A DNA stretch of 64,000 bases from a virus. The notes beneath the pieces were generated by a model, which saw nothing but the letters and a program-made list of their open reading frames with translations, was not told the origin of the DNA and made no database searches. The position numbers and the translations under genes are program-made. Of this stretch, positions 27,553 to 55,927 are shown piece after piece. The number at the start of each line of letters is the position of its first letter. Position 1 is the stretch's first letter. The DNA is taken from IMG/VR virus record IMGVR_UViG_3300026484_000436, positions 41,640-105,639 of that record; one strand, written 5' to 3'.

Positions 27553-27574
27553 TTAAATACTTTTGATTATTTAA
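27553..27574. promoter_or_regulatory. Paired TTAAATA late-promoter-like motifs, one per strand, for the lysis cassette (+) and LamG cluster (-)
   Basis: TTAAATA on + at 27553-27559 and on - at 27568-27574 in a 42-bp divergent gap. Confidence 0.45.
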
Positions 27575-27589
27575 TTAAAAGGTTAAGGA

Positions 27590-28138
27590 ATGGAATCAAT
27601 TTATCAAAAATACCCCGAAAATTTTTTAAAGGCACTTGAAAAAACCTTGAAATTTGAAGGATTATACAGTTATGACCCAGATGACCCAGGGGGAGAAACA
27701 TATTGTGGAATATCCCGTAAAAATTTCCCAAGATGGGACGGATGGCATTCGATTGACTACTTAAAACACAAAATAAATTTAGAAACCCAAGAAGTACCTG
27801 AACTTGAAGAAAAGGTCGCAGATTTTTATTATCACAATTTTTGGGTTCCTTTATCTTTAAATGAAATTGAATCTTTCAAAAAATCAAAAATAATTTTTGA
27901 TGCAGGTGTAAATATGGGACTCCATAACACTAAAAAAATAACTCAAAAAGTGTTAAAAGTTACACCAGATGGGATTATAGGTCCAATTACATTAAAATCA
28001 TTAAAAGAAATTGATGAAAATTATTTCGTTGCTGAATTTAAACTTAAACGAATTGAGTATTATATTGAATTGACAAAAAGGAAACCTATTTTTAAAAAAT
28101 ATATTGTAGGATGGGTTTCAAGAGTTTTAAATAGTTAA
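27590..28138 (+). CDS. Endolysin, glycoside hydrolase 108 with a peptidoglycan-binding domain
   Basis: EGLYSYDPDDPGGETYCGI, DGIIGPITL, GWVSRV. Confidence 0.9.
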   Translation: MESIYQKYPENFLKALEKTLKFEGLYSYDPDDPGGETYCGISRKNFPRWDGWHSIDYLKHKINLETQEVPELEEKVADFYYHNFWVPLSLNEIESFKKSKIIFDAGVNMGLHNTKKITQKVLKVTPDGIIGPITLKSLKEIDENYFVAEFKLKRIEYYIELTKRKPIFKKYIVGWVSRVLNS

Positions 28139-28147
28139 AGGTAAAAA

Positions 28148-28474
28148 ATGGAAAATAAAGTTAAAGAGTTATCAGAAAAATATGTAGATTATTGGGCAAA
28201 GCATAATATAACATCAAGAATAGGGATATTTTTATTCGTTTTTGCTTATATTTTTGCTATTGTCTTTGTTATGTTACATCCAGTGGCACCAGCAATTGCT
28301 CAAATTGTTATATCAACATCAGCATACATTGCTTTATTGAGTGTGATGTCAGTAGTATTAGGTAATAATGCTTTGGTTAAAATTATTGAGGTTATTTATG
28401 GGAACAAAAAAGTTAAGAAAACACTTGACGACACAATAGATAACCAAAATGAAAAGTTACCCAAATTATATTAA
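28148..28474 (+). CDS. Putative holin
   Basis: Two hydrophobic helices, charged C-terminus, follows the endolysin. Confidence 0.7.
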   Translation: MENKVKELSEKYVDYWAKHNITSRIGIFLFVFAYIFAIVFVMLHPVAPAIAQIVISTSAYIALLSVMSVVLGNNALVKIIEVIYGNKKVKKTLDDTIDNQNEKLPKLY

Positions 28475-28542
28475 CCTTAAACGAAACTTGAAGAAGTAGA
28501 ACTTCTTTAAGGTGTTTTTAAGATTATTAAAAAGGATAAATA

Positions 28543-28968
28543 ATGAATTTTATAAGTAAAATAATATCATTTTTTGGGTTAATAGGTGGATTGTTTTTAG
28601 CAAAAAAGACTTATGATTTATCAAATGAAGTGGAAACAAAACAAACCCAAATTGACAATCTAAAAATTGATAATGAAAAGAAAGACATTGAAGTTGAAAA
28701 TTCTAAAATTGAAAAAGAACAATTAAAAAATGAAGTTAAAGTTGAAAAAGTTGAAGAAAAAATAGATTCTTTAAAAAAGATTGATAAAGGCATAAAACAT
28801 TACGAAGAAAAAAATAATGAAAAAATAAAATCTTTTAAAAAAAAGTATAATTATAAAAATAATTATAAAAAAGAAACTATTACTGATGAGCAGGTTGAAA
28901 AAATAAATAAAACGATTGAGGAAGTAGATTCAAAAAAAGATGGAGAAGAATATGAAATTAATCTTTAA
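28543..28968 (+). CDS. Putative i-spanin
   Basis: N-terminal TM anchor plus periplasmic coiled coil. Confidence 0.6.
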   Translation: MNFISKIISFFGLIGGLFLAKKTYDLSNEVETKQTQIDNLKIDNEKKDIEVENSKIEKEQLKNEVKVEKVEEKIDSLKKIDKGIKHYEEKNNEKIKSFKKKYNYKNNYKKETITDEQVEKINKTIEEVDSKKDGEEYEINL

Positions 28969-29302
28969 AATTTTAGGAATGTTTTTAATTGGTATTTTGT
29001 TTTTAGGGTGTCAAGAACCAGAACCCAAAAAAGTGTTAGTAGTTAAAAAAGTTTATATTAAAGAAAAGGTTCCTGTTTTATCACAATTTTCTGTAGGAGA
29101 ATACAAATTGAGTGCCATAAATAAAGGTGGTAAAATTTATATCAAAGAATGGGATGCCACTATTGATAAAAAGGAATTTTTGAAGTTTATAAAATACATA
29201 AAATCATTAAAAATGACTTTATTACAATACAAAAAAGAAGTAGATATTTATAATGATTATGCTAAAAATCATAATAAAGAGTTGAACTCAACCCTAAAAT
29301 GA
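28952..29302 (+). CDS. Putative o-spanin lipoprotein
   Basis: Signal peptide with LFLG-C lipobox; overlaps the i-spanin 3' end. Confidence 0.65.
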   Translation: MKLIFKILGMFLIGILFLGCQEPEPKKVLVVKKVYIKEKVPVLSQFSVGEYKLSAINKGGKIYIKEWDATIDKKEFLKFIKYIKSLKMTLLQYKKEVDIYNDYAKNHNKELNSTLK

Positions 29303-50401: not shown

Positions 50402-51046
50402 TTATTTAATCTCAATTTTACAAATTTTTTCGAGTGTATTTTTATTTGTGAAATAGTTCAATCTTTTTATATTTTTATCATTCGGGAATAATATATAATA
50501 AACATTATTTTTTGTTTTTATAATACGATAATAAAATTTTGGAACTATCTCACCTCTTTTAAGTCTAAATTTTTCCCCACAATTTCCTGTAATCACTTGA
50601 ACTTTTCCATATTTTTTAGCAAGTAAAATTTCGAAATTTTCATATTTCCTATTTATAATTCTATTAACTTTTGGATATTGTGGGGCAATGTTAGACATCA
50701 AAAAAGTTTCTTTTTGTGCTTTCAAGTTGTCATTAAAAGCATTGTTACTAACTGTATGTCCCCTATCAATCTTAAACCCATTCAATTTTGATTTATAATC
50801 TGAACTTTTCGCATAAGGTAATTTCATAGACCTAACCTGTTTATCAATCGAAAAATACTTAATTCTTTTCAATGGGTCTTTTTCGACATTTTCTTTTCTC
50901 AATGTATAAACAGCATATCTTGGTATTTTACCTTCCACAGAATAGAAAAGTGTAAATTTTGATTTTTCTAACTTAACCAATTTTTCTGGGTATTGTATTG
51001 TTAAACCATTTAAAAAAATGGCAAAAAATAATAACAAATATTTCAT
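50402..51046 (-). CDS. Secreted DNA/RNA non-specific endonuclease (NucA/EndoG family)
   Basis: Signal peptide; DRGH, TFLMSNIAPQ...NR, VP..YY motifs. Confidence 0.9.
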   Translation of the reverse strand: MKYLLLFFAIFLNGLTIQYPEKLVKLEKSKFTLFYSVEGKIPRYAVYTLRKENVEKDPLKRIKYFSIDKQVRSMKLPYAKSSDYKSKLNGFKIDRGHTVSNNAFNDNLKAQKETFLMSNIAPQYPKVNRIINRKYENFEILLAKKYGKVQVITGNCGEKFRLKRGEIVPKFYYRIIKTKNNVYYILFPNDKNIKRLNYFTNKNTLEKICKIEIK

Positions 51047-51139
51047 TAGGATCCTTTCATAATTATAATATACTTATATTTAAAAATTAACTTTTTCTTG
51101 ATTTTTTAAATACTTTTGAATATAATAAAAGGCATTTTA

Positions 51140-51619
51140 ATGGATAAAAAAATCTTACAACTATTAGAAGATATAGAAAAAATTAGAATAACTTTAATAT
51201 CTAATCTTAACTCTAATTCATTAAATTCTCAAGAAATAAATGAGAGAATTATTGATTTGAGTTCTAAATATAAAGACCAAGATTTAAACGACTTATTAAA
51301 ATTTATTGTTTATATGAATGATAATCTAAATAATCTAAATAATAATACGAGTGAAGCATTTTTAGAAGCACTTGATAAATTATTAGATAAGAAAAAAGAA
51401 CTTATAGAAATAATTAGACATCAAAAAATTCAAGTAACACCGAAGAATAAAAATAATTTTAATGAATTCGTAAAATCAATAGGATGGCAGCATTCAATTA
51501 TAACTATTGGATTTATTGGAATGCTTATTGTCATTTTTTTATTTTTTCACCCAGAAAAAACAGAAACCATTGTAAATGGTGGAGTAGCAATAACAAAAAA
51601 TATAAAAGGCAAAAAATGA
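51140..51619 (+). CDS. Coiled-coil protein with a C-terminal TM helix; first gene of the two-component operon
   Basis: ATG at 51140 after AAAGG; ATGA overlap with the next gene. Confidence 0.6.
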   Translation: MDKKILQLLEDIEKIRITLISNLNSNSLNSQEINERIIDLSSKYKDQDLNDLLKFIVYMNDNLNNLNNNTSEAFLEALDKLLDKKKELIEIIRHQKIQVTPKNKNNFNEFVKSIGWQHSIITIGFIGMLIVIFLFFHPEKTETIVNGGVAITKNIKGKK

Positions 51620-52293
51620 GTTTCTTAAAAAACATTTTTAAAAAATTTTTAAAAAAACCAAATATTGTACCAGAAGAAAAAGGAAGTATTGAAACTGATT
51701 TAGATTATATAGAAGGTTATGATTTTTCAACCTTATGTGCTCAATGTATGTTTAGACAAAATTGTTCTAAGAATAGTCATTTTTGTGAAAAATGGCATAA
51801 AGAATGGGACAAATCAAAAAGGACATTTTTAATAATAGATGATAACTTTGGTATAGTCGCGATTATCAAAGATATAATTGATGAATTAAATGAAGAAGGA
51901 AAAATAGATCTTAAAGAATGGAATATTCTTTCATTTCAAGAAAAACAAGCAGGAATTCAATTAATAAAAGCACTTAAAATAGATAAATTAAAAGTCGATG
52001 CTGCTTTTATTGATATGACATATGGAAGTATTATTAGAATAAAAGATAAAAACATAAAAATAAATGGTATTCATATTTTTAAATTTTTAAAAGATATAAA
52101 CAAAAATTTAAAATTTAAGTTTTATACAGGAAATATATTAAATGATTACATAAGCAATAATAAAGAAATTATCGATTATTTTAAAAAAATAACAGGTGAG
52201 GATATTGAAAATTATATGATTTTAAAATCAGGAACAACAGATGAAGATTTAAAAGAGGAAGTTTTAAATCTTTTTCGAAAGGTTGATAAATGA
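51616..52293 (+). CDS. Stand-alone response-regulator receiver domain with an N-terminal four-Cys cluster
   Basis: FLIIDDN, AFIDM (phospho-Asp), NG, FYTG and LK motifs; CAQC-x5-C-x6-C. Confidence 0.75.
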   Translation: MSFLKNIFKKFLKKPNIVPEEKGSIETDLDYIEGYDFSTLCAQCMFRQNCSKNSHFCEKWHKEWDKSKRTFLIIDDNFGIVAIIKDIIDELNEEGKIDLKEWNILSFQEKQAGIQLIKALKIDKLKVDAAFIDMTYGSIIRIKDKNIKINGIHIFKFLKDINKNLKFKFYTGNILNDYISNNKEIIDYFKKITGEDIENYMILKSGTTDEDLKEEVLNLFRKVDK

Positions 52294-53462
52294 ACCTTAT
52301 TTCAAAACTTTTAATATCTTTTTTTGTATTTGTTATTTTTTTATGTTCTTCTTTATTTTTTGCATTTAATTATTTTGAGGTGAAGTATTTTACTGAGCAT
52401 TATTACTCAACTAAAAAAGTATCAAAAGATTTTCATTTAACGAATGAAAATAAATATACTGCTTTTTTAAAAAATAAAGAAATTGTATATTGTGATAAAA
52501 ATAAATGTATTGCTAAAAAAATAAAATTTAATGATTTTTTTATCATAACAACTATTATTAGTACAATTTTTACATTGATTTGGGGATATTATAGCCTTAA
52601 AACTATTAAAAAAAGTGAAGAAGAAAAATTTTTAGTAAAAAGTAGTAATCTTGAAGCATTAGCAACTCAAAATAGTATGACACTCTTAACGGAAAATATC
52701 CATCACGAACTTAATTCCCCTTTGCAAGTACTACAAAGGAATTGTAAAAAAACAAGAATGATATTATTTGAAGTTTTAAAAGAAAAGTATTTTCCTGATA
52801 GATTCATAAATGATGAACACGATTTAAAAAAGATGTTTATTTATAATCATATAAATTATATAAAAATAGGTGAGAAAAAAATTCAAGTGGATGCGATGTT
52901 TGACTTATTTATGTTATCTACAACTTCATTAGAACAAATTCAAGGTATTTTAATGAATATGTCTAATTTTAAGCAATTAAGATACACTAATGGAAATAAA
53001 TCCGTTTATGAAATAATTGAGGGAGCAGCGAAAATTTTAAATGTTACAATAGACACACCATTTAAAATTTATATAGAAGAGGGAATTGGAGATTATAAAT
53101 TAGACCATTCTAATGGATTTAAAAATGCCGATTTAGTGAATATCATCATAAATCACTTGAAAAACAGCGTTGAAGCAAATTCGACAAAAATTGATATAAC
53201 TATTGAAAATACCAAAGATGGATTTATGCTTTTAAATGTAAAAGATAATGGAAATGGTATTCCAGAAGAATTTCAAAAAAGTATTTTTCAACCAAATAAA
53301 TCCTCTAAAAAAGATACATTAGGTTTAAGAGGTAATGGGTTATTTTTAAATCAGAATTTATTGAAAATGTATGGCGGAGATATTCGACTTAAAAAGAGCA
53401 AACCTGGACAAGGGACAGAATTTGTTTTAAAACTGCCCATTATTCACTATAAAAACGATTAA
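52290..53462 (+). CDS. Membrane sensor histidine kinase
   Basis: Two TM helices; HHELNSPL H-box, NHLKNS N-box, DNGNGI, F-box, GNGL, GTEF. Confidence 0.92.
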   Translation: MNLISKLLISFFVFVIFLCSSLFFAFNYFEVKYFTEHYYSTKKVSKDFHLTNENKYTAFLKNKEIVYCDKNKCIAKKIKFNDFFIITTIISTIFTLIWGYYSLKTIKKSEEEKFLVKSSNLEALATQNSMTLLTENIHHELNSPLQVLQRNCKKTRMILFEVLKEKYFPDRFINDEHDLKKMFIYNHINYIKIGEKKIQVDAMFDLFMLSTTSLEQIQGILMNMSNFKQLRYTNGNKSVYEIIEGAAKILNVTIDTPFKIYIEEGIGDYKLDHSNGFKNADLVNIIINHLKNSVEANSTKIDITIENTKDGFMLLNVKDNGNGIPEEFQKSIFQPNKSSKKDTLGLRGNGLFLNQNLLKMYGGDIRLKKSKPGQGTEFVLKLPIIHYKND

Positions 53463-54031
53463 GAAATCCTCACATAATACTCTTTATTAAGGGTATTATG
53501 TTTAATTTTTATAATTCCCTTTGTAATATCTAACTTTTTAAGTACTTCATTTTGATAAATGTATTGTATATCATAACATTTTAAATTATCATCTATTTCT
53601 GAAACAATTTCATAATCACTATTAAATTTTACATTTTTCGGCATTGAAGCACTTTCTTCATCTTTAAAATAAACATCCTTTTTAACTATTTCATATTCTT
53701 TTATTTTTTTAACAAATTTATTTTTGCCAAATAGTAAATTAAAACTTGTAAAATATCTTTTCTCATCTAAAACAGTTAAAAGTTTAAAATAATCTACCCC
53801 ATCTTTAACGAAATGTCTAAATGGTACAAAAAAACATTTTTCAAATTTTTTGCCTTTTTTATAAAAAGTTTTTTTAATCATAATTATATTTTTTATAAAT
53901 TGATTTCCTTTTTTATTATCTTCGTGCCCATATAAAAAAGATAAATCTCCTTTTAATAATTCTTCAACATCGTTGAAATATGTTCTTTGTTTTAATGCTT
54001 CTCTAAAATGTCTATTTGCTAAAATTATCAT
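53459..54031 (-). CDS. Hypothetical protein
   Basis: 190 aa ORF with SD. Confidence 0.5.
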   Translation of the reverse strand: MIILANRHFREALKQRTYFNDVEELLKGDLSFLYGHEDNKKGNQFIKNIIMIKKTFYKKGKKFEKCFFVPFRHFVKDGVDYFKLLTVLDEKRYFTSFNLLFGKNKFVKKIKEYEIVKKDVYFKDEESASMPKNVKFNSDYEIVSEIDDNLKCYDIQYIYQNEVLKKLDITKGIIKIKHNTLNKEYYVRIS

Positions 54032-54056: not shown

Positions 54057-54081
54057 TTAGTGGGGTGTTACCACCCACTAA
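54057..54081 (-). terminator. Hairpin after the ParR-like gene
   Basis: ttagtggg...cccactaa stem. Confidence 0.55.
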
Positions 54082-54331
54082 TATCCATAATATCGTTATT
54101 TTCTTCAACGATTTCTTCTTTAACTTCCTCGTTTTTACTTTTTTTAGGAGTGTCTTTTTCAACGATTAACTCTTCAACTTTAATATCTTCTTCGCCTTTT
54201 AGTATCTTAAAATAACTTGTATCTTTTGCCAATCTTATACCAAAATTTATTATGGAAGTGATGTGAATTGGGTCAATTTCACCCAAAATCTCAACACTTT
54301 TATCATCTAATTTTAATTTAACTTCTTTCAT
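54068..54331 (-). CDS. ParR-like adaptor (possible ribbon-helix-helix N-terminus, acidic tail)
   Basis: Small gene directly after the ParM-like gene; beta-helix-helix pattern. Confidence 0.5.
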   Translation of the reverse strand: MKEVKLKLDDKSVEILGEIDPIHITSIINFGIRLAKDTSYFKILKGEEDIKVEELIVEKDTPKKSKNEEVKEEIVEENNDIMDISGW

Positions 54332-54340
54332 AATTTTCCT

Positions 54341-55264
54341 TTATAAGTAAGAATAACCTCTAACATTGTTAAACTCTAATGGGTCATCATCAATAACTGC
54401 ATTTGGTGGCAACTTGGCACCTTTTAAGAAATTTGCTCCACCACCTGAAATGATAACTAAATGTGATGAACCCAACATTTTTTTATCTTCAATTAAAACA
54501 CTTTGGAAAAGTTTCATAATGAATTTTCTTTTTTCGTCTTTTATGAATTTAACTACATCTTCGTGCTCGACACCATTAAACATAAAACTCTCATCGATAA
54601 CATACTCATTTATCTCACTATCAGAACATTGCATATTAAATTTATTTTCTATAAATGTTTTAACAGGCCTAACTAAACTTGAAACTCCGTGCCCAGGATA
54701 TGCTTTTGAAACTTGTTTTTGAAATTTCTTTTTAACAATCGATAAAACATTTATCGTATTAAAACCTATATCAATTATCGCAACTTTTTTGCTTGCTAAA
54801 TCAAACCCTTCTTTAACTTTTGAACCCTCTTTTAGATATCTCATATAAATACCTATACCTTGTGGTACGATTTTTAATTTTAAGTTTATCTCTTGTCCAT
54901 TTATGGCAAAATGAGATAATCTTTTTTCAAAATCAGGAATATGACCTAAATCATTTAATGCCAATCCTGTTTTAACCACGATTGGCATTTCTTTATTCGC
55001 AAGTTGAAATTTACTTAAAATATGATAAATGATTAACGGACTATATTTTAAAAGTTGTTTAAAATCAGTAGTAGTAAATGTTTCTCCCATTGAAGCATCA
55101 GAACCAACTATGTATTTTTCGCTTTCAAATTCATACACTTCTTGGTCGCCATAGTCGATTCCATTATCTGTATATAAACCCACGGCAGTTGGTATTTTTA
55201 CTTCTTTATTTTTATATCTTATTTTAGTATGACCATAACCAATATCTATTGAAATACTTTCCAT
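54341..55264 (-). CDS. ParM/StbA-family actin-like ATPase
   Basis: IDIGYGHTK, TGLA, PQG, IDIGFNTIN, ISGGGA, NVRGY. Confidence 0.88.
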   Translation of the reverse strand: MESISIDIGYGHTKIRYKNKEVKIPTAVGLYTDNGIDYGDQEVYEFESEKYIVGSDASMGETFTTTDFKQLLKYSPLIIYHILSKFQLANKEMPIVVKTGLALNDLGHIPDFEKRLSHFAINGQEINLKLKIVPQGIGIYMRYLKEGSKVKEGFDLASKKVAIIDIGFNTINVLSIVKKKFQKQVSKAYPGHGVSSLVRPVKTFIENKFNMQCSDSEINEYVIDESFMFNGVEHEDVVKFIKDEKRKFIMKLFQSVLIEDKKMLGSSHLVIISGGGANFLKGAKLPPNAVIDDDPLEFNNVRGYSYL

Positions 55265-55705: not shown

Positions 55706-55927
55706 TTAATAATGTAAATAATCTAAATCCATTGATTGTAACTTTTTAATTGCACTTTTATATATTTTTGAAATTGCTGCCGGAGAAACACCCATAAGAT
55801 AAGCAATCTCTTCATTTGAGTATTCTCTTGCCTCAATCAAACCTTCACTCATTAAAAAGTCAAGTAATTGCCATCTTTCTTTAACCTTTAAGTCCAACAT
55901 CATAAGTCTTATTTGATTCAAATCCAT
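55706..55927 (-). CDS. Small sigma70 region-4-like HTH protein
   Basis: YSNEEIAYLMGVSPAAISKIYKSAIKKL. Confidence 0.7.
   Translation of the reverse strand: MDLNQIRLMMLDLKVKERWQLLDFLMSEGLIEAREYSNEEIAYLMGVSPAAISKIYKSAIKKLQSMDLDYLHY

Follow-up and report, generated by a model that had tools for sequence, protein, structure and literature searches.

Bacteriophages are usually thought to rely on the sensors of their hosts or on simple one-protein switches. The three-gene operon described here (g1, g2 and g3) lies in a 64,000-nucleotide (nt) stretch of viral DNA, hereafter the window, which comprises bases 41640–105639 of the 105.6-kb IMG/VR virus record IMGVR_UViG_3300026484_000436 (completeness 47% by CheckV). 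An initial annotation, made from the letters of the window, had marked the locus as a phage-encoded two-component operon with an output-less receiver and had proposed a signalling module that senses a periplasmic or redox cue. That interpretation is partly supported by the present analysis, to which an amphipathic helix in g2, a secreted and porin-like extension in ~40% of the loci and the adjacency of lysis genes in 5 of 25 loci are new. We consider it likely that the trio is a self-contained, phage-specific phosphotransfer system of three components at the inner membrane.

The nearest known systems are HisKA kinases that work with single-domain receivers. The phage kinase profile aligns with the kinase of the HK853–RR468 pair of Thermotoga maritima (PDB 3DGE, 4JAS) across the DHp and CA domains (E 2e-14), while g2 has in common with Spo0F, CheY, DivK and CpdR the receiver fold, the five active-site residues and the lack of an output domain. 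In contrast to the HK853–RR468 type, phages carry the family of the trio while bacterial chromosomes do not; g2 fails the Pfam model and has a beta-hairpin after the phospho-Asp, an N-terminal amphipathic helix and a variable linker; and an obligatory membrane-anchored third gene, which belongs to no known family, is added.

The closest phage precedent found is the agr3 cassette (agrD, agrB, agrC) of phiCDHM1, a Clostridioides difficile myovirus, whose sensor histidine kinase is expressed during infection (PMC3901668). Though both phages carry a sensor histidine kinase on their genomes, the agr genes of phiCDHM1 are recent host acquisitions of a known quorum-sensing family and come without a response regulator (PMC3901668), whereas the trio includes a dedicated receiver, is without autoinducer genes and has no counterpart in cells. 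Lysis inhibition in T4, where holin T works with antiholin RI, is likewise a phage-encoded membrane signal pathway, in which an envelope cue sets the time of lysis (PMC11413866). In five relatives, genes for a holin, an endolysin or spanins stand beside the module, a likeness of context only; sequence and fold are unrelated, T4 lysis inhibition employs no phosphotransfer and the link to lysis genes is absent in the window. T4 offers a functional analogue only. Divergent receiver-like domains are also encoded by other large phages, namely the cREC domains of jumbo phages, which are reported never to occur with histidine kinases and to be linked to NAD/ADP-ribose enzymes (PMC7824862), whereas g2 is always next to a kinase. 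A few phage entries in BFVD are annotated as response regulators, so that phage receiver genes have some precedent. Full-text literature searches returned no paper describing the three-gene module.

The kinase g3 (390 residues) has two hydrophobic segments, read from the sequence as transmembrane (TM) helices at about residues 5–27 (TM1) and 83–105 (TM2). They enclose an outside loop of 55 residues (28–82) with a C-x4-C motif. Neither a HAMP nor a PAS domain stands before the H-box; this small loop is the sole input region. The H-box ENIHHELNSPL was aligned with NIsHELRTPL of HK853, and in the profile alignment H139 falls on the phospho-His. The CA domain is matched by Pfam HATPase_c above the cut-off (3.9e-17). 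In an alignment of 29 kinases, the H-box residues E135, N136, H139, E140 and P144 are invariant, as are N288, K291, N292, S293 and A296 of the N-box, D319, G321, N322 and G323 of G1, and R347, G348 and G350 of G2; an F-box region is present as well. H139 and E140 were found in all 25 loci (denoted below by L numbers), and the kinase boxes are kept in 24 of them, L013 showing alignment gaps at G321 and G323. Pfam HisKA (PF00512) gave no match to g3 at E up to 1, and few distant relatives have one (P0026). Matches to NCBIfam were confined to the CA domain and far below every cut-off, which places g3 outside all named kinase families. Judged by its motifs, g3 is an intact HisKA-type sensor kinase, as the complete two-TM histidine kinase of the initial annotation had implied.

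For g2, the AF2 model has a pLDDT (predicted local distance difference test) of 88.9 and a pTM (predicted template modelling score) of 0.83. Foldseek placed Spo0F, CheY-like and RcsB receivers on top with probability 1.0, almost all of the listed matches being receivers. Using VIA-align, ComE, HupR, NtrC1, Spo0F and CheY were superimposed on residues 67–225 at Z 10.8–12.9 with root-mean-square deviations (rmsd) of 2.4–3.2 Å, the best match reaching Z 12.9 and rmsd 2.6 Å over 128 residues; the 50 matches listed are all receivers except one uncharacterised Rossmann-fold protein. The (beta-alpha)5 receiver fold is thus indicated by AF2, Foldseek and VIA alike. The receiver residues are D75, D76, the phospho-acceptor D133, T171 and K204. 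In an alignment of 27 homologues, D75, D76, D133, G151 and K204 are invariant and T171 nearly so, and the DD-D-T-K set is complete in 24 of 25 aligned relatives, the exception (L025) having DD-D-S, with its Lys column gapped. What sets the family apart from ordinary receivers is a beta-hairpin of ~10 residues just after D133. No output or effector domain is fused to g2, and the best 150 of 365 family matches measure 127–292 residues. Searches of g2 against Pfam, PHROGs, NCBIfam and PADLOC gave no match; residues 1–66, the fold of which was not searched separately, contain no Pfam, PHROG or NCBIfam domain. By its residues, g2 is a divergent, catalytically complete stand-alone receiver, and its first description, a receiver with all catalytic motifs and no DNA-binding output, stands.

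The first 11–14 residues of g2 are predicted to form a cationic amphipathic helix, MSFLKNIFKKFLKK, with a hydrophobic moment of 0.76 and a net charge of +5; the N-terminal consensus of the family is IKxxFxK. An amphipathicity scan of 25 g2 homologues placed the N-terminal 11-mer at the median 97th percentile within its own protein. The helix may well be a membrane-targeting element, and because the receiver begins with such a conserved cationic helix, the membrane is the probable site of action of the system.

Wherever a locus extends upstream of the kinase, the gene immediately 5′ of it is a g2 homologue, and the pairwise identities of g2 and g3 are correlated (r 0.82, Mantel 0/2000). Adjacency, co-variation and intact residues suggest that phosphate passes from g3 to g2, and the kinase–receiver core is very likely functional. 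A rival reading is an exchange with the host, in which g3 acts mainly on host response regulators, adding or removing phosphate, or g2 serves as a phosphate sink for the kinases of the host, while g1 merely assists the kinase; host envelope, motility or stress regulons would then be rewired. Such a role draws on the lack of an output domain in g2, on the common HisKA type of the kinase and on the genomes themselves, since no second receiver above the Pfam cut-off was found in four complete and one 97% complete module genomes. We regard it as unlikely, because g2 and g3 co-vary tightly and are always adjacent, as fits a dedicated pair, and because the beta-hairpin beside the active site of g2 is specific to the family. 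Moreover, the GC content of the loci ranges from 0.20 to 0.42, so the hosts are probably many, and a system tuned to a single regulator of one host is less to be expected.

The N-terminal cysteine cluster of g2 (C41-x2-C44-x5-C50-x6-C57) is present as initially described but does not define the family, being found in ~8–9 of 27 relatives. It is conserved in the two close g2 relatives of the window, and clusters of different spacing occur in about six further loci (L002, L003, L008, L010, L011, L021), among them C-x2-C-x5-C-x9-C, C-x2-C-x7-C-x2-C and others. FNR or WhiB-like proteins share C-x2-C-x5-C. On this ground the cluster could bind Fe-S or Zn and be the real input of the system, as in those proteins, and its conservation in the two close relatives and in L002 speaks for such a sensor. 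We think this improbable: most of the 27 relatives are without the cluster, the pLDDT of the AF2 model is only ~73 there, and the search for a Cys ligand set conserved across the g2 family, as for FNR/WhiB-type Fe-S sensors, found none. The variable spacing is more in keeping with a structural zinc knuckle than with a tuned Fe-S sensor and, together with the minority of relatives concerned, makes a general redox or Fe-S input unlikely. The cluster is, as the alignment indicates, a subfamily ornament and not the input of the family, and the redox cue proposed at first is not supported as a general input.

The third partner, g1 (159 residues), consists of a cytoplasmic N-terminal domain of ~110 residues, one C-terminal TM helix and a tail of ~20 residues. 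The model is all-helical (pLDDT 74.5, pTM 0.37), and the TM helix, which bears out the annotation of g1 as a TM protein, was placed from model helix H116-136 and the alignment. The architecture is shared by 24 position-conserved homologues. No match to g1 was obtained in Pfam, PHROGs, NCBIfam, PADLOC or the ESM Atlas, and Foldseek returned generic helical bundles alone (E above 0.4). An Hpt-like role was rejected, the alignment being without a conserved His.

The three genes form a plus-strand island held together by two ATGA overlaps, as had been noted: the ATG of g2 (51616) overlaps the stop of g1 (TGA, 51617–51619), and that of g3 (52290) overlaps the stop of g2 (52291–52293). The ATG at 51140 is preferred as the start of g1 because homologues align from it and AAGG lies 7 nt upstream; the alternative TTG at 51116 is less likely. 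An operon beginning at 51106, as first drawn, is correct for the TTAAATA motif found there and not for the gene start. Each gene of the trio is preceded at 6–7 nt by a Shine–Dalgarno-like AAAGG or GAAAGG. In nearly all loci of the relatives, g2 is preceded by a gene of the g1 type, and the frames usually overlap or abut. The three genes are translationally coupled, and highly divergent large phages have inherited them together.

The TTAAATA motif ahead of the operon is no chance occurrence. The heptamer is depleted in the window (45 copies against 99 ± 11 expected), and 19 of the 45, the copy at the operon and 18 others, lie 14–46 nt 5′ of a gene start on the same strand, where ~1.6 are expected by position. 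This start-proximal fraction is the highest among the top-ranked A/T 7-mers listed. Examples are found at 827, 35796, 41302, 49672, 51077, 55304 and 61369 on the minus strand and at 27553, 51106 and 56495 on the plus strand, and the genes behind the motif are of mixed function (a PD-(D/E)XK nuclease, a secreted nuclease, an actin-like protein, an endolysin and others). One class of phage promoters probably has TTAAATA as its core. A sigma-70-like TTGATT-17-TATAAT, the best in the region with 10 of 12 positions matching the pattern, overlaps it. At the other end of the operon, a terminator-like hairpin lies 10 nt past the kinase stop, within the 3′ end of the convergent gene, and is the only such site of the region.

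The family profile recovered 26 loci with the module from IMG/VR, where single-protein scans had given no match. In ~25 of the IMG/VR loci the trio stands together, so that the synteny proposed as a check was found and the phage-borne signalling module is genuine. The module occurs in complete or near-complete genomes of 161–272 kb, three with direct terminal repeats (DTR) and two linear (CheckV 97–100%); a Gp23-type capsid match was obtained in only some of them, and no integrase was found in the complete DTR genomes. An exhaustive profile search gave 365 clusters of the receiver family at 50% identity, of which 326 reach E 1e-10 or lower, and we take at least 326 clusters as a lower bound of the family size. 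No member is named in any source, and none was found in deposited phage genomes. BLAST searches of 50,697 deposited phage records, with DNA and protein, gave no full-length match, while the CA-domain matches among them are, judged by titles and annotations, apparently bacterial contigs under phage names. Complete two-component systems had been called rare in lytic T4-like phages; this holds for the deposited records but not for uncultured large phages, where the family is large.

When 185,579 species were scanned, each represented by one genome, the kinase was matched beyond the CA domain on four contigs of metagenome-assembled genomes only (1.4–5.8 kb), two of which have g2 upstream of the kinase (L028, L039). 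The nearest bacterial kinases match in the CA domain only, at ~30–40% identity. The trio proteins gave no match to PADLOC models, which include kinase and receiver defences such as Detocs, at E up to 0.01, and the genes are located in phage genomes rather than in bacterial defence islands. Two-component systems are typical of bacteria, and the island lies on the minority strand with a flip of the GC skew at it. An ordinary bacterial operon brought in by recent host capture, contamination or chimeric assembly would account for these features; it is nevertheless extremely improbable and was rejected. The GC content of the island (0.22–0.25) matches that of the phage, the promoter motif is the phage's own, the trio sits in complete DTR phage genomes, and among the 185,579 species no bacterial chromosome carries it. 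The trio is, on this comparative evidence, an old, phage-specific family.

In 11–12 loci two genes for secreted proteins follow the trio, one encoding a small protein with a KGWxRV motif, the other a protein of ~400 residues. One of the larger proteins (L018) matches DUF3373 (5e-10), a member of the putative outer-membrane porin family TC 1.B.62 (PMC4827864). In L013 the gene of the larger protein is split into two frames. Neither gene of the secreted pair was found in the 105 kb of this phage. In L010 and L021 an extra membrane protein of ~200 residues, hydrophobic at both ends and without a family match, is inserted between g2 and g3. A Pfam scan of 86 upstream neighbours revealed no single dominant partner family.

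ClpX-like ATPases (zf-C4_ClpX and AAA_2) are encoded divergently next to g1 in L008, L009, L011 and L013. This neighbourhood would be consistent with g2 acting as CpdR or RssB do, as an adaptor that delivers substrates to the ClpX protease in a phosphorylation-dependent manner. We give such an adaptor very little credence, since ClpX-like genes are missing from G000 and from three of the four complete module genomes, are distant from the module in the fourth, and occur next to it in four loci that look like one lineage. As a general explanation the ClpX adaptor was rejected, because most module genomes are without a ClpX-like gene.

Lysis genes lie no more than two genes from the module in 5 of 25 loci (L006, L007, L012, L021, L027; Table 1). 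Thus the proposal of lysis timing as the output finds modest support in the gene context of relatives, but not in this phage. The other outputs proposed at first, crosstalk with host regulators, motility and superinfection sensing, are no more than candidates.

On the preferred reading, a self-contained phosphotransfer system at the inner membrane, the kinase would read an envelope or extracytoplasmic cue, in ~40% of the relatives probably with the co-encoded small secreted protein and the DUF3373-like outer-membrane porin. It would autophosphorylate on H139 and pass the phosphate to D133 of g2. The N-terminal helix would hold g2 at the membrane, and g2 would act by protein contact, as it has no DNA-binding domain. 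The most likely contact would be the cytoplasmic helical domain of g1, which is the only other invariant partner. All three proteins are thus placed, by prediction, at the membrane, and this placement together with the lack of a DNA-binding output suggests that the system controls some process of the membrane or envelope through protein contact. That the event controlled is one such as the timing of lysis is our best-supported guess for the downstream process, and a tentative one.

Several observations weigh against parts of this reading. Pfam Response_reg (PF00072) matched neither g2 nor anything else in the genome at E up to 1, and the g2 family profile found CheY, PhoP and Spo0F as its best PDB matches only weakly (E ~0.01), with the DD pair and the phospho-Asp in register; because of this, it is by its fold and its five residues that g2 is classed as a receiver. 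The alignment of the 24 g1 homologues contains no invariant residue and the tertiary model of g1 is of low confidence (pTM 0.37), so that g1 as the target rather than an accessory of the kinase is a guess. The flanks of the trio differ between loci and the upstream neighbours are heterogeneous. The enrichment of lysis genes is only rough (8e-4 to 0.045 in a binomial estimate that varies with the assumed background, with loci that are non-independent), and the lysis cassette of this phage is 22 kb from the trio.

The remaining features of the window are collected with those of the operon in Table 1. The GC content is ~25% throughout. The record holds a T4-type major capsid gene (Pfam Gp23, E 2e-21), and a tyrosine integrase was looked for and not found; for these reasons T4-like and probably virulent is a fair description of the phage. 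Almost all genes lie on the minus strand, and the trio is one of three plus-strand islands. A search for tRNAs in the window found none. The second plus-strand island is the lysis cassette, headed by its own TTAAATA at 27553. The nuclease gene divergent from the operon has a signal-peptide-like N-terminus and its own TTAAATA at 51077. The convergent gene overlaps the kinase stop by 4 nt; in L002 a gene of 173 residues occupies the equivalent position, a likeness of size and place only. Just downstream of the operon, the actin-like gene stands beside a gene of 87 residues. This pair also follows the module in L002 and could be a segregation or cytoskeleton cassette. A 73-residue protein with a helix-turn-helix match may be a small phage transcription factor.

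Table 1. Features of the operon, of the rest of the window and of related loci (aa, amino acids; positions are those of the window unless a locus is given).
Feature	Position	Strand	Basis or remark
Sigma-70-like TTGATT-17-TATAAT	51098–51126		overlaps TTAAATA
TTAAATA promoter-like motif	51106–51112	+	27 nt 5′ of g1 ATG
g1, helical protein	51140–51619	+	alignment, all-helical model
g1 TM helix, ~aa 117–137	51488–51550	+	model helix and alignment
g2, receiver protein	51616–52293	+	
g2 N-terminal amphipathic helix	51616–51657	+	hydrophobic moment, charge
g2 Cys cluster	51736–51786	+	subfamily-specific
g2 receiver (REC) domain, aa 67–225	51814–52293	+	AF2 fold, Foldseek, VIA, residues
g3, sensor histidine kinase	52290–53462	+	motifs, Pfam, family profile
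g3 H-box, aa 135–145	52692–52724	+	phospho-His H139
g3 CA domain, aa 281–384	53130–53441	+	HATPase_c
AT-rich terminator-like hairpin	53472–53501	+	13-pair stem, then T-run; weak evidence
Endonuclease_NS, DNA/RNA non-specific endonuclease	50402–51046	−	8.4e-22; divergent from operon
Convergent gene, 190 aa	53459–54031	−	no assigned function
ParM/ALP actin-like gene	54068–55264	−	ALP_N 4.5e-14
73-aa protein	55706–55927	−	weak Sigma70_r4-like helix-turn-helix match, E 9e-4, below cut-off
Lysis cassette	27553–29302	+	plus-strand island
GH108 endolysin with PG_binding_3 domain	27590–28138	+	lysis cassette
Holin-like 2-TM protein	28148–28474	+	lysis cassette
i-spanin-like protein	28543–28968	+	lysis cassette; N-terminal TM and charged coil
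o-spanin-like lipoprotein	28940–29302	+	lysis cassette; lipobox LFLGC
Secreted pair in L003, L005, L008, L011–L014, L018–L020, L022, L027	~8.8–10.5 kb in each locus		
Inserted ~200-aa membrane protein	L010:6948–7544; L021:7116–7727		between g2 and g3
ClpX-like genes	L008:5212–6450; L009:5146–6297; L011:4954–6129; L013:5250–6428	−	ClpX zinc finger and AAA_2
Lysis genes, L006 and L007			GH108 endolysin and 3-TM holin near module
Lysis genes, L012			holin-like, i-spanin-like and lipobox o-spanin genes upstream of module
Lysis genes, L021			M15 peptidase and TM protein near module
Lysis genes, L027			holin-like, two spanin-like genes and probable peptidase-type endolysin downstream of module; endolysin identified by eye, as it resembles the M15 enzyme of L021

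The cassette occurs in hundreds of large uncultured phages and is absent from bacterial chromosomes; phages with the trio therefore very probably sense something at the envelope of the infected cell for themselves. A further step, which we put forward as a possibility of rather low probability, is an autonomous envelope-spanning pathway of large virulent phages that reads the cell exterior or surface and adjusts a membrane event, for example the moment of lysis. In many relatives its chain would run from the porin-like protein through the small periplasmic protein, the kinase and the membrane-tethered receiver to a tail-anchored effector, and it would do by phosphorelay what lysis inhibition does in T4, using proteins without cellular family members.

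A dedicated and complete phosphotransfer system, kept in hundreds of large uncultured phage lineages, is missing from bacterial chromosomes. The two-component repertoire gains three uncharacterised families, namely a receiver variant, a tail-anchored partner and a small secreted protein with the KGWxRV motif, and the module is small enough for direct testing. If the reading is true, viruses would make an environment-dependent decision during infection with machinery of their own.

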